Shown here: positions 1-5,364 of the stretch, in pieces
Layout of the letters: every line of letters starts with the position of its first letter
Numbering within the stretch: the first letter of the stretch is position 1
Source: a virus
Taxonomy: Duplodnaviria > Heunggongvirae > Uroviricota > Caudoviricetes
IMG/VR virus record: IMGVR_UViG_2875713109_000006
Strand: one strand, 5' to 3'
DNA length: 5,364 bases
Notes under the pieces: generated by a model
What the model was told of the DNA's origin: nothing
Database searches by the model: none
What the model saw: only the letters and a program-made list of their open reading frames with translations
Program-made: the position numbers and the translations under genes

Positions 1-276
1 AAGATACCTAGCATAAAGAATGATTGATTTTTGAATGATCTATTTTATGATTTATTGCAATAAAATCCAAGCCATCTATATGGTAAATTGCCATAAAATC
101 AATCAGTTCAATAAATCAGGCTGAAACACGACTTCGATATAACATCAAAGAAAATAAAAATAATATATATAAATCATAAAGATAGAATACTCACAACAAC
201 CTTATCCCCACGAAAAACTGATAAACACTGAAATTCTTTTCAATCTTTTCAGTTTGGGTTTTCCGCAAAGCCACCA
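1..276. other. AT-rich non-coding tract with short repeated motifs (AAATCA, ATGAT) and one near-DnaA-box TTATCCCCA at 202..210
   Basis: All six frames are dense in stop codons. The only ATG-initiated ORF (35..124, 29 aa) has no Shine-Dalgarno and low-complexity composition. Base composition is visibly more AT-rich than the adjacent coding DNA. TTATCCCCA matches the DnaA box consensus TTATNCACA at 8 of 9 positions. Confidence 0.5.
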
Positions 277-342
277 GTGCTGGCGCGAGATGACAGTCTG
301 GTTTGTAGAAAAATAAAACTGAAAAAATTTATCGATCCAGAA

Positions 343-360
343 ACCGCAGGCGGGTGCGGT
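343..360 (-). terminator. Candidate stem-loop (ACCGCA / 6-nt loop / TGCGGT), possible weak terminator for the leftward early operon
   Basis: Perfect 6-bp inverted repeat 343..348 / 355..360. On the - strand the stem is followed by UUUCUGG and, a few nt later, by U-rich runs; the U-tract is not contiguous with the stem, so a classical intrinsic terminator is doubtful. Confidence 0.25.
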
Positions 361-370
361 GTAGTGCCGT

Positions 371-400
371 TTTTGTCTGCGAAAGATTTATTTTGTCTGC
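371..400. repeat. Exact 10-bp tandem direct repeat TTTTGTCTGC (371..380 and 391..400), 20-bp periodicity
   Basis: Read directly from the sequence: ttttgtctgc-gaaagattta-ttttgtctgc. It lies in the non-coding stretch downstream of the exonuclease gene. Confidence 0.6.
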
Positions 401-554
401 ATGTGGCTACCTCAGAGCGTCGCTGTGAATTTGATCTTATTGCGGTGTCGCAGTGGTTACCCGCGATCGTTTTTTCGCAGTTCGGCCTTTTTCTGGCCAG
501 CCACTACTGCATCAAGGTATTTCGGCGCAATCTTTATCGTGTGGATTTTGATTG

Positions 555-1259
555 TCATTTTGCACCGCCTTCTGCAATAGCAAGGATCACACCAAGCGTC
601 AGATTGCAGTCATACAACGCTCTATGTGGTGCACCTTCTCCGGCATCAACCTTAAGCGCCGCCGCTGCATCCACAAGTCGTTTCCAGCGGGTTTTACGGC
701 GTACAACATCCCATTCACCGTTATAATCTGCGTACAGCTGCATTACGCACTCAGGGGTGCATATATCCTCATGCTGTTCATAATCCCCACCAGACTGGCG
801 CAACATACGCGCATCAAATTTTGCGTTATATGCGACCCAGCCTTTACTTGTTAACTCCAATACTTTCGGCAGAATTTCCAACCATGATGGTGCATTAGCA
901 ACCATTTCATCCGTAATACCGTGAATTGCAGTTGCCGCTTCTGGAATAGATTTCGATGGCTTGACCAGCGTATTAAGCAAAACGTAACCAGCACAGTCGA
1001 TGATCGAAATTTCTACAATTTCATCATCAAATCCTAGTCCTGTGGTTTCTGTATCAAGAATGACAAAGCCCTTATCAATCCAGCGCTTTGCTATCTGTTG
1101 TTCGGTTTCCAGACGGTCGGAAAAATACAGAGACTGATCGGTGATCCTCCAACACTGGCGAATCACATCGCGCAACGAAGCCCCTTCTTTAGCTCTGGCA
1201 CCAGAAACCACCCCACCCAAAATGGCCGAAAAAAGTTGATTGCGAGTGCTCAATTCCAT
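555..1259 (-). CDS. DnaQ-like (DEDDh) 3'-5' exonuclease with an N-terminal extension of roughly 60 aa
   Basis: The translation contains the three exonuclease motifs in the right order: [10 protein letters not shown] (Exo I), [10 protein letters not shown] (Exo II), HRALYDCNL (Exo III-epsilon, H-x-A-x-x-D). ATG at 1259..1257 is preceded by AAAGGCGG. The ORF track starts at an in-frame TTG at 1280, which would add 7 aa. The gene overlaps the stop of the upstream 77-aa ORF by 10 nt. Confidence 0.8.
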
Positions 1260-1483
1260 GCCGCACCGCCTTTGCTGCAAATCGCTGCGGCTTCTTCGCG
1301 GATTAACTCAACGATTTCCGTTGCGCTTAAACCTTCATTGGCCGCATGAGTGGCCAGCTTATCCAGACGGGTGGAACACAGATCAGCTGCTGCGGCTTTA
1401 CCTTCCTGCGTGGCTTTGGTGAGCATGGCCAGCAGGTCGGTGCCTGATTTTGTTGCGGGTAAATCCTGACGTGTCATGTGCAT
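1250..1483 (-). CDS. Hypothetical small alanine-rich protein (77 aa)
   Basis: ORF with ATG at 1483..1481 preceded by AAGGAAA at about 7 nt spacing. Its stop overlaps the exonuclease start, suggesting translational coupling. No motif recognised. Confidence 0.55.
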   Translation of the reverse strand: MHMTRQDLPATKSGTDLLAMLTKATQEGKAAAADLCSTRLDKLATHAANEGLSATEIVELIREEAAAICSKGGAAWN

Positions 1484-1512
1484 TTTGGTTTCCTTAAGGC
1501 AAAAGAATCCCC

Positions 1513-1531
1513 GGCCACTTGAACCGTGGCC
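1513..1531 (-). other. Stem-loop GGCCAC / 7-nt loop / GTGGCC in the 67-nt gap between orf133 and orf77
   Basis: Perfect 6-bp GC-rich inverted repeat. On the - strand transcript it is followed by GGGGAUUCUUUUG, an imperfect U-tract. It is the only sizeable intergenic gap in the otherwise tightly packed leftward operon. Confidence 0.3.
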
Positions 1532-1550
1532 AAAAAATTCAGGCTGTTAA

Positions 1551-1952
1551 TTAGTGAAAAGTGGGTTGTACTGTGGCGGCTGAGTAGTTCGGTGCCGGAA
1601 TCAGGTGCAGCTCATAGGTTATCCGCCACCACTCCTGGATCAGCGCTTTTATCTCGCCAACGCCCAACGCCCCGGCTGTATAGAAAATTGCACGAATCCC
1701 CGCCAGCGCTTCTATCTGGGCTTCTTTGCTTTTCGCTTCGCGATATACGCAGCACCAGAAAGCAGCATTGATCGCCAGCCAGTGACGCGGATTTGTCATG
1801 TGTTCAGTGTCGTTGAAGAAGAACGGATGCAAAGCGATACGCCCATTTTTACTGGTGCTTTTCTCTGCAAACGCTAATGCGTAGTTATGCGGGACGCCCC
1901 ACACAGCCAGCTCTGCCCCTAGTGATTTACCTTCAACCGAAATAATGGACAT
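1551..1952 (-). CDS. Hypothetical protein (133 aa), translationally coupled to the upstream gene
   Basis: Its ATG (1952..1950) overlaps the TGA of the 142-aa ORF by one base (TGATG), with AGGGGAA 8 nt upstream. No motif recognised. Position is syntenic with the fil/dhr region of phage 186, but identity is unproven. Confidence 0.6.
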   Translation of the reverse strand: MSIISVEGKSLGAELAVWGVPHNYALAFAEKSTSKNGRIALHPFFFNDTEHMTNPRHWLAINAAFWCCVYREAKSKEAQIEALAGIRAIFYTAGALGVGEIKALIQEWWRITYELHLIPAPNYSAATVQPTFH

Positions 1953-2380
1953 CAGTGATTCCCCTGTTGCTGTAACTTCTGGACAATATGAGGTGCAACC
2001 ACCATCTGCACCCCGCTGCTGCTATAAATTGGATGAACCTTCTTGATTGGGCGGTTCGCGGTACGTTTCGAAAAATCGCTGTCACGTAAACTGCCGAAAC
2101 CTTCAAACGTTAACCGCGCCCGTGAAATGCCCTGGCGCAGTTGAATCATGTCCCGATAGCCCAGGCGTTCATAAAGCTCACGCCAGCAGCACTTGCTTAA
2201 ATGGGCTTTAAATGCCCCGGTACCAGAAGTAACCGCAGCAGCATGAAGTACTACGCCGCGCCACTCCGGTGTCAAGTTGTCCCACCATTCAGCGGCCTCG
2301 CTGCTTTCGCTGAAGTATTTGCGGCGGATCTGTTTTAAATGCTCCAGCCCGCGCTTTTGCTGTTCCTGGCTAATCGCCAT
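1952..2380 (-). CDS. Hypothetical protein (142 aa)
   Basis: ORF with ATG at 2380..2378, starting 9 nt after the stop of the 57-aa ORF. Same strand and tight spacing as the flanking early genes. No motif recognised. Confidence 0.6.
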   Translation of the reverse strand: MAISQEQQKRGLEHLKQIRRKYFSESSEAAEWWDNLTPEWRGVVLHAAAVTSGTGAFKAHLSKCCWRELYERLGYRDMIQLRQGISRARLTFEGFGSLRDSDFSKRTANRPIKKVHPIYSSSGVQMVVAPHIVQKLQQQGNH

Positions 2381-2389
2381 AGCGTCCCC

Positions 2390-2563
2390 CTATAGCCCCA
2401 TCAGACGACGCCACCACGGGCGACGCGGCTGCTGGCCATTGAATTTGTACATGTGGCCAGGGTTCCAGCGCTGACCGTTCGGCAGTTCAATCCAGCCCGT
2501 TGAACCACTGGGCAATTGCATGGCCGGTGATTCGTTTTTCAGGTAAGTGACAAACGCTTTCAT
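2390..2563 (-). CDS. Hypothetical small basic protein (57 aa: MKAFVTYLKNESPAMQLPSGSTGWIELPNGQRWNPGHMYKFNGQQPRRPWWRRLMGL)
   Basis: Not in the supplied ORF track (below its length cut-off); translated by hand. ATG at 2563..2561 is preceded by GAGGGAGA at 3 nt spacing and lies 9 nt after the cII stop. Stop TAG at 2392..2390. Confidence 0.45.
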   Translation of the reverse strand: MKAFVTYLKNESPAMQLPSGSTGWIELPNGQRWNPGHMYKFNGQQPRRPWWRRLMGL

Positions 2564-2572
2564 GGTTCTCCC

Positions 2573-3076
2573 TCACATCAGGCCGGTGGCGTTGGTTGTG
2601 ACCAGATCCACCGCAGCGGCCAAAACCGGCGCAGAGTGAATACGGCTTTCAACGGTATAAGCCAGCACGGATAAGCTACGGATTGCATCTCGGGCACGAT
2701 CCAGAATTTGAGTACGGCGGGCGGCGGTCATATGACCAGCTGATACGGCTTCCCCAGCAATCGCGCCCACACTGGCTGTGGCGCTCAGTGCACACAGTTG
2801 CATGTTGCCTTCTGTTGCATTGTTCACCGGTACGGATGGAAGGCAGTTAATCTGCCCCAGCATCCCATCCAGTAAACGCGCATCTTCGGTGTAATCCGTG
2901 ATAGCCAAAAGTTCATCACAGGTCAGGCGGTGCGGTTGCGCTGGGTTCAGTTTATTACGCAGGATCTGTGGCCTCATACCAACGGCAGCGGCCACATCTT
3001 CAAGATTGTGCTCAATTGCAAATGCTCGGCAAGCCGCATCAAAGTGCGCATGTTTAGAGGTCTGGTAATCAAACAT
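2573..3076 (-). CDS. cII: CII-like transcriptional activator (167 aa), phage 186 CII family
   Basis: N-terminus MFDYQTSKHAHFDAACRAFA and the internal LRNKLNP-QPH segment match my recollection of phage 186 CII, which is of similar length. Strong RBS GGGAGAGG 6 nt upstream of the ATG. Located directly downstream of the Apl-like gene, as in 186. Confidence 0.75.
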   Translation of the reverse strand: MFDYQTSKHAHFDAACRAFAIEHNLEDVAAAVGMRPQILRNKLNPAQPHRLTCDELLAITDYTEDARLLDGMLGQINCLPSVPVNNATEGNMQLCALSATASVGAIAGEAVSAGHMTAARRTQILDRARDAIRSLSVLAYTVESRIHSAPVLAAAVDLVTTNATGLM

Positions 3077-3106
3077 TGTTTGCCTCTCCCTAATCCGTAG
3101 GATGGA

Positions 3107-3328
3107 TTACGCTTTAAGCGAAATGTCACATTCGCTTAAAGCCTGAATAGTGAGCGCGGCCATGTTGACTTCGACCAGGCCTTTCTTCTGCTTACCCTTC
3201 GGCTTAATAGGTAATTTCCCGTATTCGATCAGGTTCCTGGCGGTTTCTTTGTTGGTACCAGTACGGCGGCAATACTCGTCTAAAGGCAGGTATGGCTCTG
3301 GGATGATGATTGTAATGTTCGGACGCAT
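3107..3328 (-). CDS. apl: Apl/Cox-like small HTH protein (excisionase / lytic-side repressor), 73 aa
   Basis: First gene of the leftward operon, divergent from the repressor gene. ATG at 3328..3326 is preceded by GGAG at 8 nt spacing. The N-terminus MRPNITIIIPEPYLPLDEYCRRTGTNKETARNLIEYGKLPI aligns in register with my recollection of the P2 Cox N-terminus. The ORF track extends it to a GTG at 3388 (93 aa); the true start is unresolved. Confidence 0.65.
   Translation of the reverse strand: MRPNITIIIPEPYLPLDEYCRRTGTNKETARNLIEYGKLPIKPKGKQKKGLVEVNMAALTIQALSECDISLKA
3111..3142. promoter_or_regulatory. Perfect 12-bp inverted repeat GCTTTAAGCGAA / 8-bp spacer / TTCGCTTAAAGC inside the last 11 codons of apl
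   Basis: Read directly: gctttaagcgaa-atgtcaca-ttcgcttaaagc. It encodes ALSECDISLKA on the - strand and is not followed by a T-tract on either strand, so it is not a terminator. It lies about 280 bp from the switch. Confidence 0.4.
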
Positions 3329-3447
3329 GAGGCAAACTCCATAAGTTAACCTGTACGGCAATACAGGGCTGTAACTGTCAATATTCACTTAAACCTACAA
3401 AGCGGAGTTTAAACTCACTCCGCGCAAGATTTCAAGGTAAAACTTTC
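3329..3447. promoter_or_regulatory. Divergent apl-cI intergenic region: presumed lysis/lysogeny switch with promoters and operators
   Basis: Contains (i) dyad CCTGTA-N6-TACAGG at 3350..3367; (ii) a perfect 12-bp palindrome GAGTTTAAACTC at 3405..3416 nested in GCGGAGT-N8-ACTCCGC (3402..3423); (iii) a candidate - strand promoter TTGAAA (3435..3430), 16-bp spacer, TTTAAA (3413..3408); (iv) a perfect TTGACA on the - strand (3381..3376) with no matching -10. Promoter assignments are by eye and uncertain. Confidence 0.5.
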
Positions 3448-4026
3448 GTGAATCTACAAATTGAGTTTTCTCATGGCGGAGCTGAGGTACTAGATAGAGT
3501 TATCCAAGCGTATGGATTCAACACAAAACTAGCCCTAGCCGAACATCTTGATATAGCAAGCAGCAGTCTGGCTAACCGGTATAAGAGGGATTTTTTTCCA
3601 GCTGATATCGTTGTTAGATGTATGGCTGAAACAGGAGCTACTCTGGAATGGCTTGCGACTGGACAAGGTAGAAAGTTTAACGATGACGAATTAGACATCA
3701 TGAAATTGCCACGCAAGAAGATTGTGGACGGAAAACTCTATGAGTCTGGTTTCCTAATGCTCGATAAGGTTACTTTTTTACCTGGCAAACCTTTACCGCA
3801 GAATCCTATCTGTGTGATTGATAACACAATGCAATACATTGTTGATCAACACTTTACTGAAGTTTATGACGATGTTTGGCTTGTCGAAGTTGAAGGTAAA
3901 ACCAGCGTTAGAACACTAACACGCATCCCTGTGGGAAAAGTTAGAGTAAGCGGCGTAGGTATGGCTTTTGACTGCGGTATTGACGATATAAAAATCATCG
4001 GCCGCATTGTTCTGACGATTGAATGA
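3448..4026 (+). CDS. cI: CI-type immunity repressor (192 aa), phage 186 CI family
   Basis: Length and N-terminal region (VLDRVIQAYGF...LDIASSSLANRY) match my recollection of 186 CI (192 aa). N-terminal HTH-like segment followed by a C-terminal domain. GTG start at 3448 with AAGGT about 10 nt upstream; there is no in-frame ATG near the N-terminus. Directly upstream of and co-oriented with int. Confidence 0.75.
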   Translation: MNLQIEFSHGGAEVLDRVIQAYGFNTKLALAEHLDIASSSLANRYKRDFFPADIVVRCMAETGATLEWLATGQGRKFNDDELDIMKLPRKKIVDGKLYESGFLMLDKVTFLPGKPLPQNPICVIDNTMQYIVDQHFTEVYDDVWLVEVEGKTSVRTLTRIPVGKVRVSGVGMAFDCGIDDIKIIGRIVLTIE

Positions 4027-4027
4027 A

Positions 4028-5068
4028 ATGAGTGTTCGTAAACTTCCGACAGGCGAATGGATCGCCGACTTCTACACCGTCAACCGTAGTAATGGTAAGA
4101 ACGGGAAGCGCATACGTAAAAAATTTGCCACGAAGGGGGAAGCCCTGGCATTTGAGAACCATACGCTTCAGAAAGTAGACAGTGCGCCCTGGCTGGGTGA
4201 AGGGAAGGACAAACGAACTTTAATAGACCTGATCACAATGTGGTATGAACGCCACGGAGTAGCTTTGCGCAATGGTCAAAAGCGCAAAGACGCTATGACC
4301 TGGGCGGCAGAGTGCATGGGATTCCCGCTAGCTACAGAGTTTAATGCCCAGCTGTTCACGGCCTACCGCGCAAAAAGGCTTGATGGGCATTATGCCCGCA
4401 CTAGCAGAGTATCCAAGGTTTCCCCGAAAACAATGAACCTTGAACATGCTTACTTCCTGGCTATGTTCAACGAGCTGAAACGAATCGGGGAATGGTCAGC
4501 CCCCAACCCACTGGAAAACGTCAGACAGTATCGTACTGATGAAACCGAAATGGCTTTCCTCACTGCTGAAGAAATTGAGCTGCTTTTGCTGGAATGCAAA
4601 CGAAGCAAAGTAAAATACTTGGAGCTAGTCGTAAAAATCTGTCTTGCGACCGGCGCAAGATGGAATGAAGCGGCAACGCTGAAAAGCTCTCAGATCGCAG
4701 GCGATAAAGTTACGTTCGTCAAAACCAAAGGGAAGCGCAACAGAACAATCCCCCTTGATGATGAACTTCTATCCGAATTGCCTGAAACGAAAGGCGCTCT
4801 GTTCCCCAAACCCTGCTATAACGCGTTCCGCTCTGCTTTGGAACGCGCAGGCATTGAACTCCCCTCCGGCCAGCTTACCCATGTACTGCGCCATACATTT
4901 GCCAGCCACTTTATGATGAACGGCGGGAACATTCTGGTTCTGCAAAAAATTCTCGGCCACGCTGACATCACTATGACAATGCGTTATGCCCATTTCGCCC
5001 CAAGCCACCTTGAAGATGCCGTGCGACTTAACCCCTTAAAATGTCGCAAAAATGTCGCGACAGCTTAG
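4028..5068 (+). CDS. int: Tyrosine recombinase / phage integrase, P2/186 Int family (346 aa)
   Basis: Catalytic signature present: LATGARWNEA (box I Arg), HVLRHTFASHF (His-x-x-Arg) and TMRYAHF (Tyr nucleophile). N-terminus resembles P2 Int. ATG at 4028 lies 1 nt after the cI stop TGA (4024..4026). The ORF track begins at an in-frame TTG at 4019, which would overlap cI by 8 nt. Confidence 0.9.
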   Translation: MSVRKLPTGEWIADFYTVNRSNGKNGKRIRKKFATKGEALAFENHTLQKVDSAPWLGEGKDKRTLIDLITMWYERHGVALRNGQKRKDAMTWAAECMGFPLATEFNAQLFTAYRAKRLDGHYARTSRVSKVSPKTMNLEHAYFLAMFNELKRIGEWSAPNPLENVRQYRTDETEMAFLTAEEIELLLLECKRSKVKYLELVVKICLATGARWNEAATLKSSQIAGDKVTFVKTKGKRNRTIPLDDELLSELPETKGALFPKPCYNAFRSALERAGIELPSGQLTHVLRHTFASHFMMNGGNILVLQKILGHADITMTMRYAHFAPSHLEDAVRLNPLKCRKNVATA

Positions 5069-5235
5069 AAATACTGCCGAATACTCACAGATATTAACTA
5101 ACGTAACTTATTGATAACACTGTAAGTTATTGTTTTTCGTAGATAGTTGATGCTTTATAATATAGCCTGTGCTATATCTGTATGTAATGCAATCATCCCT
5201 CAAGGATCGACGGGATTAGCAAGTCAGGAGGTCTT
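5069..5235. other. AT-rich spacer downstream of int; candidate att / prophage-end region
   Basis: In P2-like phages the attachment site lies just beyond the 3' end of int. The region holds direct repeats TAACTTATTG (5103..5112) and TAAGTTATTG (5123..5132) and AATACT (5070..5075, 5080..5085), plus a TATAAT hexamer at 5156..5161. No tRNA-like structure was seen and the core cannot be identified from the sequence alone. Confidence 0.3.
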
Positions 5236-5364
5236 ATGAATGAGTTCAAGAGGTGTATGCGCGTGTTTAGTCATTCTCCCTTTAAAGTACGGTTAATGCT
5301 GCTCTCTATGTTGTGCGATATGGTCAACAACAAACCGCAGCAAGATAAACCTTCCGATAAATAG
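5236..5364 (+). CDS. Small ORF (42 aa: MNEFKRCMRVFSHSPFKVRLMLLSMLCDMVNNKPQQDKPSDK), function unknown
   Basis: ATG at 5236 is preceded by a consensus AGGAGG (5226..5231) at 4 nt spacing. The TAG stop is the last three bases of the window. No motif recognised; it may be a host gene at the prophage junction or a phage moron. Confidence 0.4.
   Translation: MNEFKRCMRVFSHSPFKVRLMLLSMLCDMVNNKPQQDKPSDK

Follow-up and report, generated by a model that had tools for sequence, protein, structure and literature searches.

The lysis–lysogeny switches of P2/186-type prophages raise the question of how they are connected to the SOS response, and the DNA analysed here (the window, 5,364 nucleotides in length) poses it sharply; namely, whether a LexA-like dyad next to apl couples the switch directly to DNA damage or has some other role. 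The dyad, CCTGTA-CGGCAA-TACAGG (positions 3350–3367), has perfect 6-bp arms around a 6-nt centre and contains CTGT (3351–3354) and ACAG (3363–3366) eight nucleotides apart, as in the core of a LexA box. It is followed by CTGTAACTGTCAA at 3369–3381, with CTGT at 3369 and 3375. The original prediction, made from the sequence alone, described these elements accurately, from the perfect CCTGTA-N6-TACAGG dyad with its CTGT-N8-ACAG spacing to a centre (CGGCAA) that is GC-rich rather than AT-rich and the further CTGT copies downstream, and offered as readings a repressor or Apl operator or a genuine LexA site.

The chromosome of Escherichia coli PSS-07 is 100% identical to the window, and the element is flanked there by mntR and mntS. 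The gene order is int-cI / apl-cII-fil and onwards, with apl as the first gene of the early lytic operon, and the window holds the immunity switch of a remnant ESSI-2-like (P2/186-type) E. coli prophage. Its genes are as follows.

Positions 4028 to 5068, plus strand: int
Positions 3448 to 4026, plus strand: cI, the 186-type immunity repressor (Pfam Phage_CI_repr and Phage_CI_C; 40% identity to 186 CI)
Positions 3107 to 3328, minus strand: apl, a Cox-like excisionase/repressor of 73 amino acids (phrog_575, 'Cox-like excisionase and repressor', E = 1.7e-27)
Positions 2573 to 3076, minus strand: cII
Minus strand: fil and more early genes
Also present: a DUF3850 gene, truncated

The Apl protein of the window shares 29% identity with 186 Apl. 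An intact version of the element, an ESSI-2-like prophage of approximately 29 kb (L124), is carried by strain EC101. Local alignment of PSS-07 with EC101 shows that 23.9 kb are missing (L124 5464–29401), with the deletion junction at window positions 458–462, where the two parts of the window (1–462 and 458–5364) overlap by 5 bp. The deletion took gene A, a LexA-box/tum-like module, ogr and all structural genes, and the switch, int and the early genes are still intact in the PSS-07 remnant.

To place the dyad, we used the 186 record, which is annotated from experiments, and mirrored its map onto the window by means of offsets from the apl ATG. In 186, the pL −10 occupies positions −10 to −5 relative to the apl ATG, the pL −35 consists of apl nucleotides 14–19, seven Apl operators extend from −85 to −18 and pR adjoins cI. 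Mirrored in this way, the 186 Apl footprint (−85 to −18) corresponds to window positions 3346–3413. The promoters are placed as follows.

Positions 3333 to 3338, plus strand: putative pL −10, CAAACT, with an offset from the apl ATG equal to that of the mapped pL −10 of 186
Positions 3310 to 3315, plus strand: putative pL −35, TTGTAA, inside apl codons 5–7, at the 186 pL −35 offset (apl nucleotides 14–19)
Positions 3435 to 3430 and 3411 to 3406, minus strand: predicted pR −35 (TTGAAA) and −10 (TAAACT), from a consensus scan and mirroring 186 pR relative to cI

The putative pL −10 overlaps the apl Shine–Dalgarno sequence on the opposite strand (GGAG, 3337–3340), and GGCAAACTCC shows almost no variation among relatives. 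Codons 5 and 6 of apl are ATT ACA, and 77 of 78 distinct apl 5′ ends show no change at their synonymous sites, whereas four-fold sites nearby vary freely; this invariance (3310–3316) fits a pL −35 that is embedded in coding sequence. With a pL start at about 3345 (plus strand) and a pR start near 3398 (minus strand), both predicted, positions 3350–3382 would fall at about +5 to +38 in RNA from pL and at about +17 to +49 in RNA from pR. The dyad had been described as lying between apl and the switch; because it falls between the putative pL −10 and the predicted pR −10, it lies within the switch itself. A different promoter, with the hairpin described below in its spacer (TTAACC-17/18-TATATA), can be drawn in some relatives; we reject it because its −10 is absent from the window allele and the 186-homologous pL is better supported.

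Several other features of the switch region are recorded here as observations. On the minus strand, 3377–3382 forms a perfect TTGACA −35 hexamer with no usable −10 after it, and this hexamer is not conserved, because relatives carry ATTGCC. The direct repeats AACCTACAAA (3392–3401) and AATCTACAAA (3451–3460) are 59 bp apart and flank the predicted pR, with the second copy overlapping cI codons 2–4. Between immunity types, a change in one copy is matched in the other (for example, AAGCTACA and AAGCTACA in L011), and the pair is a candidate for CI operators of the direct-repeat kind. A second dyad, GCGGAGT-N8-ACTCCGC (3402–3423), covers the predicted pR −10; in relatives GGAGT/ACTCC changes to GAAGT/ACTTC, with G·T wobbles on the plus strand, and this dyad may serve as a CI operator or form a hairpin in the leader of cI. 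Within the last apl codons, GCTTTAAGCGAA and TTCGCTTAAAGC form a perfect inverted repeat of 12 bp around an 8-nt loop (3111–3142), at the place where 186 has the FR CI site and the pE region.

Judged on the window sequence by itself, a 6-bp inverted repeat is nothing unusual. Twelve perfect ones with loops of 3–8 nt occur in the window compared with 9.2 ± 3.5 in simulated sequences, and the probability of at least one in the 119-bp spacer is 0.135. The CTGT cluster looks more unusual by the same kind of reckoning, as four CTGT or ACAG tetranucleotides occur in 33 bp where 0.27 are expected, a density that 5 of 500 simulated windows attain. Comparison with relatives turns this order around, as the dyad is kept by compensatory change and the cluster is not: 113 of 167 distinct relatives have no CTGT or ACAG there, and at least three are found in only 8.

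If the dyad were a genuine LexA box, it would couple the switch directly to DNA damage, as the original prediction proposed. We scored it with a LexA heterology-index (HI) matrix made from 29 E. coli boxes, of which only the dinG box was confirmed in sequence (L001). The 20-mer at 3349–3368 has the CTGT-N8-ACAG core and is the best-scoring 20-mer in the window, but its HI of 13.0 is worse than that of all 29 functional boxes (0.9–11.9, leave-one-out), and the annotated LexA box of 186 p95, scored with the same matrix but outside its training set, reaches 1.37. The penalties arise from the GC-rich centre (CGGC) and the flanks. Chance suffices for such a score, with 0.59 random 20-mers expected to reach it per window; five non-SOS 20-mers in 45 kb of flanking chromosome do better, and the site stands only at the 28th percentile among random CTGT-N8-ACAG sequences. 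Beyond the two tetranucleotides, 3349–3368 has no LexA character. It resembles the E. coli LexA box, TACTG(TA)5CAGTA, in core and dyad symmetry, and differs from it in its GC-rich centre, its poor flanks, its HI and a core that orthologous sites do not keep. Of 93 perfect helices, 30 have CCTGTA/TACAGG, more than any other arm allele, but this is one of 13 interchangeable alleles; the other twelve lack CTGT/ACAG, and the six non-CTGTA versions that were scored have HI values of 28–50. The direction of control would also be wrong, as a LexA box over the start of pL would be expected to repress pL and not pR, such that SOS would raise CI instead of favouring induction.

The intact prophage has a canonical LexA box elsewhere. 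This box, TACTGTATGTATATCCAGTT (HI 2.3; L124 8638–8657), is 22 bp upstream of a 68-aa open reading frame (8680–8886) that follows replication gene A. The product of this frame can be aligned with the N terminus of 186 Tum (32% identity over 38 amino acids, E = 2e-5), it also matches phrog_698 (unknown function), and it is a candidate for a short antirepressor without the DinI-like C-terminal half found in Tum. Since a canonical box precedes a tum-like frame, SOS coupling in the intact phage would be of the 186 type, and not of the direct kind that a LexA site in the switch would imply; the module falls in the part deleted from PSS-07. The matrix score and the chance expectation, together with the failure of relatives to keep the core and the presence of a canonical box at another place in the intact phage, led us to reject 3350–3367 as a LexA box, and we regard direct coupling of the switch to DNA damage through this site as extremely improbable.

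The alternative of an Apl operator fares better. The Apl operators of 186 are 6-bp direct repeats with a spacing of 10–11 bp, and three adjacent copies are required for binding (PMC7498355). The annotated stretches between pR and pL of 186 contain the hexamers GGCTAA, GCAATT, GGCAAG, GGCAAA, GTCAAA, TGCAAA and GGCTAA, and 186 attP contains GGCGAA, GGTAAT, GGCAAA, GGCAAT and GTCAAT. In the window, comparable hexamers are found on the plus strand.

Positions 3357 to 3362, plus strand: putative Apl hexamer 1, GGCAAT, in the hairpin loop, identical to one 186 attP operator and within the mirrored 186 footprint
Positions 3367 to 3372, plus strand: putative Apl hexamer 2, GGCTGT, degenerate, 10 bp from hexamer 1 and containing the second CTGT
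Positions 3377 to 3382, plus strand: putative Apl hexamer 3, GTCAAT, 10 bp from hexamer 2, identical to a 186 attP operator and preceded by the third CTGT
Positions 3345 to 3350, plus strand: possible extra hexamer, GTTAAC, weak, suggested by the moderately conserved columns 11–16 of alignment A3

Hexamer 1 is the most conserved block of alignment A3 (G67 G54 C65 A73 A75 T66 of 75 sequences). The position of hexamer 2 is occupied by GGCAAT or GGTTAT in relatives, and the three alignment blocks share the consensus G-G/T-C-A-A-T; the three repeats are about one helical turn apart. GTTAAC is 12 bp from hexamer 1 and is therefore out of phase. In two relatives (L088 and L109), GGCAAT is repeated three to four times at 10-bp spacing, and more divergent relatives have a variant hexamer, [GA]CAAC, in the same arrangement. 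The phased three-hexamer array scores 21.2 compared with a maximum of 17.2 in 100 simulated windows, a comparison that is partly circular given that the matrix comes from homologous sites. The array lies between and over the face-to-face predicted promoters and adjoins apl, matching the 186 map. The further CTGT copies are therefore explained as the degenerate hexamer 2 and the flank of hexamer 3.

By analogy with 186, these data support the view that 3350–3382 is the apl-proximal half of an Apl operator array between pL and pR. The Apl half of the proposed 'repressor or Apl operator' is thus upheld by the 186 position and by hexamers in 10-bp phase; the suggested comparison with known 186 operators bore fruit, with GGCAAT and GTCAAT both identical to 186 Apl operators. 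Recognition of the arms by CI, the repressor half of that proposal, did not hold up (see below). The likeness to the 186 array (Dodd, Shearwin, Egan; Cutts et al. 2020, PMC7498355) extends to a site between face-to-face promoters, the distances from the apl ATG, direct repeats of 6 bp with a spacing of one helical turn and near-identical hexamers (GGCAAT, GTCAAT). The differences are that three to four hexamers are recognizable here compared with seven in 186, that they lie on the cI-sense strand here and on the apl-sense strand in 186, that 186 has no conserved hairpin around an operator, and that the two Apl proteins are only 29% identical. The Cox boxes of P2 (Pe–Pc) are similar in that Cox-family direct repeats lie between convergent promoters and serve excision and switch control, and P2 differs in having a C repressor rather than CI. 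The P2 Cox box consensus, TTAAAGNCA, is unlike the hexamers here, and no hairpin is known at P2 Cox boxes.

Further possible Apl-related sequences occur elsewhere in the window. Just past int, at 5098–5073 on the minus strand, GTTAAT, GTGAGT and GGCAGT are 10 bp apart, at the place where 186 has its att-arm Apl operators; they score 10.3, below the simulated median of 12.7, and do not stand out from chance as a second array. A second exact copy of CGGCAATAC occurs at 3267–3275 inside apl, 89 bp from the hairpin loop, and as it is encoded by conserved Y-C-R codons it is probably a coding by-product.

An Apl array accounts for the centre of the dyad and leaves its arms to be considered. We compared 200 related switch regions from E. 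coli genomes, species-representative Enterobacterales genomes (including Buttiauxella, Erwinia, Pantoea, Serratia, Xenorhabdus and Kosakonia) and IMG/VR viral contigs. At least five of six Watson–Crick pairs around a 6-nt centre, NGNCAA, are present in 123 of 136 distinct leaders, at 19–23 nt from the apl ATG. Thirteen arm alleles are perfectly complementary: CCTGTA, CCGATA, TGGATA, TGAATG, TGAACT, TGAGCG and TGAGTG, together with CTGACA, CGTGTA, CCTATA, CGGATA, TGAGCA and TGAATA. RNAalifold, applied to the 136 distinct leaders in the apl sense, predicts this helix and no other. Paired cells amount to 92.3% of that alignment compared with 61.7 ± 1.2% after shuffling, and the covariation score is 0.885 compared with 0.333 ± 0.017, a value reached by 0 of 500 shuffles; registers slid along the alignment score at most 0.17. 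Double changes are found at all six pairs, as expected of a leader hairpin under compensatory substitution, and a plus-strand alignment of the first 75 sequences gives the same covariation picture. The sequence comparisons indicate that dyad symmetry, and not the CTGT/ACAG sequence, is what is conserved. As the arms are held complementary whatever their sequence, they would form a hairpin of 6–7 bp with the first hexamer as its loop.

Positions 3350 to 3367, minus strand: conserved hairpin, with arms 3350–3355 and 3362–3367 and centre 3356–3361 (RNAalifold, covariation and arm alleles)

In minus-strand RNA the hairpin reads CCUGUA-UUGCCG-UACAGG, and it precedes the apl AUG by 21 nt and the Shine–Dalgarno sequence (GGAG) by 9 nt. 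This compensatory conservation, which points to a hairpin, was not foreseen by the earlier reader. A search of Rfam 15 with positions 3000–3700, on both strands and with E values up to 10, returned no match, and literature searches on stem–loops in P2/186-type switches or on 186 antitermination yielded nothing relevant in the library covered. A covariance model run over the 36-kb intact prophage recovered only the copy in the apl leader (26.7 bits, E = 2e-4), and thus a single copy in place of a nutL/nutR-like pair, and it found none in 186. As a possible 186 equivalent we considered an 8-bp repeat, CAATTGAT/ATCAATTG, which a quick look indicated is not kept in 186 relatives. An intrinsic terminator was also considered; none is predicted, and neither strand has a U-tract after the stem.

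Complementary arms could reflect a palindromic DNA operator for a dimeric protein, either a host factor or CI at a weak pL site of the kind proposed for 186. The dyad does lie over the start of pL, 186 CI reportedly acts at pL as well as at pR, and the allele TGAATG/CATTCA resembles the ATTCA of 186-type CI half-sites. Protein and arm sequences are, however, uncoupled. The same Apl residues 1–60, including the helix–turn–helix (HTH), are found with CTGTA, CGATA, CCACA or GATA arms, and identical CI HTH regions are found with GAGCG or GAATG arms. The CI HTH region of L044, whose switch is identical to that of the window, is 97% identical to that of L004; the window and L004 agree in their pR operator sequences, yet their arms are CTGTA and GGATA, respectively. 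Conversely, CTGTA arms also occur with unrelated pR operators (the window compared with L006). Recognition of the arms by CI or Apl is rejected because identical proteins occur with different arms, and a host factor is opposed because a host protein would need constant arms. Arms that vary with compensation around a constant, asymmetric centre are, as far as sequence comparison can tell, the reverse of the operator pattern, and the asymmetry of wobble pairs between strands (below) has no explanation at the level of DNA. We therefore give a palindromic operator little credence.

The remaining readings place the hairpin in RNA, and the main issue is the strand. Among sequences with a single non-Watson–Crick inner pair, 8 carry it as G·U in the minus-strand reading (approximately 5 independent events), none does so in the plus-strand reading and 1 has another mismatch; a null model restricted to transitions gives this asymmetry a P value of roughly 0.03. 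The outermost pair gives a mixed picture, including six T·G on the plus strand. Stability favours the minus-strand hairpin in 82 of 91 distinct sequences (mean −7.6 compared with −6.35 kcal/mol), comparisons that are not independent because the conserved loop is common to all, and its loop can close with a U·G pair to give a 7-bp stem with a UGCC tetraloop. The hairpin is present in both the minimum free energy (MFE) and centroid structures of plus-strand (pL) RNA, and is absent from the MFE structure of the long minus-strand leader. Taken together, these limited strand data favour, but do not prove, a hairpin that works as RNA within the apl 5′ leader carried by the pR transcript.

The same data bear on a stem–loop in the other transcript, near the 5′ end of the cI-int mRNA from pL, where it would protect the lysogenic message from 5′-end-dependent decay. 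A pL start at about 3345 puts the stem at +5 to +23, the folding of plus-strand RNA agrees, and both strands can form the hairpin because most helices are fully Watson–Crick. This role is nevertheless unlikely: the inner wobbles are all on the other strand, the plus-strand form is usually the less stable, the pL start is a prediction by homology, and five to six unpaired 5′ nucleotides give poor protection. Alternatively, the complementary hairpins of the pR and pL transcripts might nucleate sense–antisense pairing by loop–loop kissing (CGGCAA with UUGCCG) and so add an RNA-level layer to the switch. The predicted transcripts overlap over about 3345–3398, both RNAs can form the hairpin with fully complementary, GC-rich 6-nt loops, and a conserved loop on a stem of free sequence is typical of antisense systems such as CopA/CopT. 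The Apl hexamer already explains the conserved loop, however, no YUNR U-turn motif is present, G·U pairs confined to one strand break the partner hairpin, and interference between pR and pL of 186 is said to result from polymerase collisions and not from RNA. We consider kissing quite improbable.

The account that we judge probable combines an Apl array with an arm-complementary hairpin, favoured as RNA in the apl leader, without a LexA role and with SOS control exerted through the tum-like gene. By homology with 186, Apl monomers would bind GGCAAT (3357), GGCTGT (3367) and GTCAAT (3377) cooperatively, and the binding would bend the DNA and damp both pL and pR. The arms CCTGTA and TACAGG would flank and pair around hexamer 1, which would become the loop of a hairpin acting as RNA in the apl leader, about 9 nt upstream of the ribosome-binding site. 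Because the stem sequence is free, the element would act through structure; as a guess, such a structure-only cis element might set the translation or stability of apl mRNA, or cause a pause of RNA polymerase moving onto pL. SOS control of the intact phage would operate through the distant, LexA-repressed tum-like gene, as in 186.

What the hairpin does is a matter for guesswork, and we would rank an effect on apl translation or stability above stabilization of pL RNA, this above a pause over pL, and kissing loops last. The stem ends about 10 nt before the putative pL −10. An elemental pause signal (G−10 Y−1 G+1) after the stem is present in the window (with U−1) and is not conserved in relatives. 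A more far-reaching possibility, which we put forward as speculative and rather doubtful, is that the hairpin is an undescribed cis RNA element of ESSI-2-like/P2/186-type switches that forms in nascent pR RNA as polymerase reaches the convergent pL and either stalls polymerase over pL (pause-enhanced transcriptional interference) or gates apl translation. It resembles the lambda nut boxB and his-leader pause hairpins in having a short covarying stem (5–7 bp) and a conserved loop and in being located in a leader just past an early phage promoter, about 9–11 nt upstream of a possible pause or Shine–Dalgarno sequence. Unlike these, it is present in a single copy per genome, with no boxA-like partner and no known binding protein; a DNA operator can also explain the conservation of its loop, and the pause consensus is not kept in relatives.

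These results correct a tempting misreading, as a CTGT-N8-ACAG dyad in a prophage switch is not in itself evidence for direct SOS control. Tools that call SOS-dependent prophages by LexA-box score would be near their threshold at this site, whereas the true box is 6 kb away and missing from the remnant. A compensatory hairpin occurs in more than 100 distinct prophage switch sequences from many enterobacterial genera, around the first putative Apl operator and at the place where the convergent pR and pL transcripts meet, and it gives this well-studied class of genetic switch a further feature that can be tested. If the reading is true, one 18-bp stretch would serve as a protein operator when DNA and as a regulatory hairpin when RNA and, if the hairpin is functional, the lysis–lysogeny decision of these phages would gain an RNA-level component that the model phage 186 has not shown.
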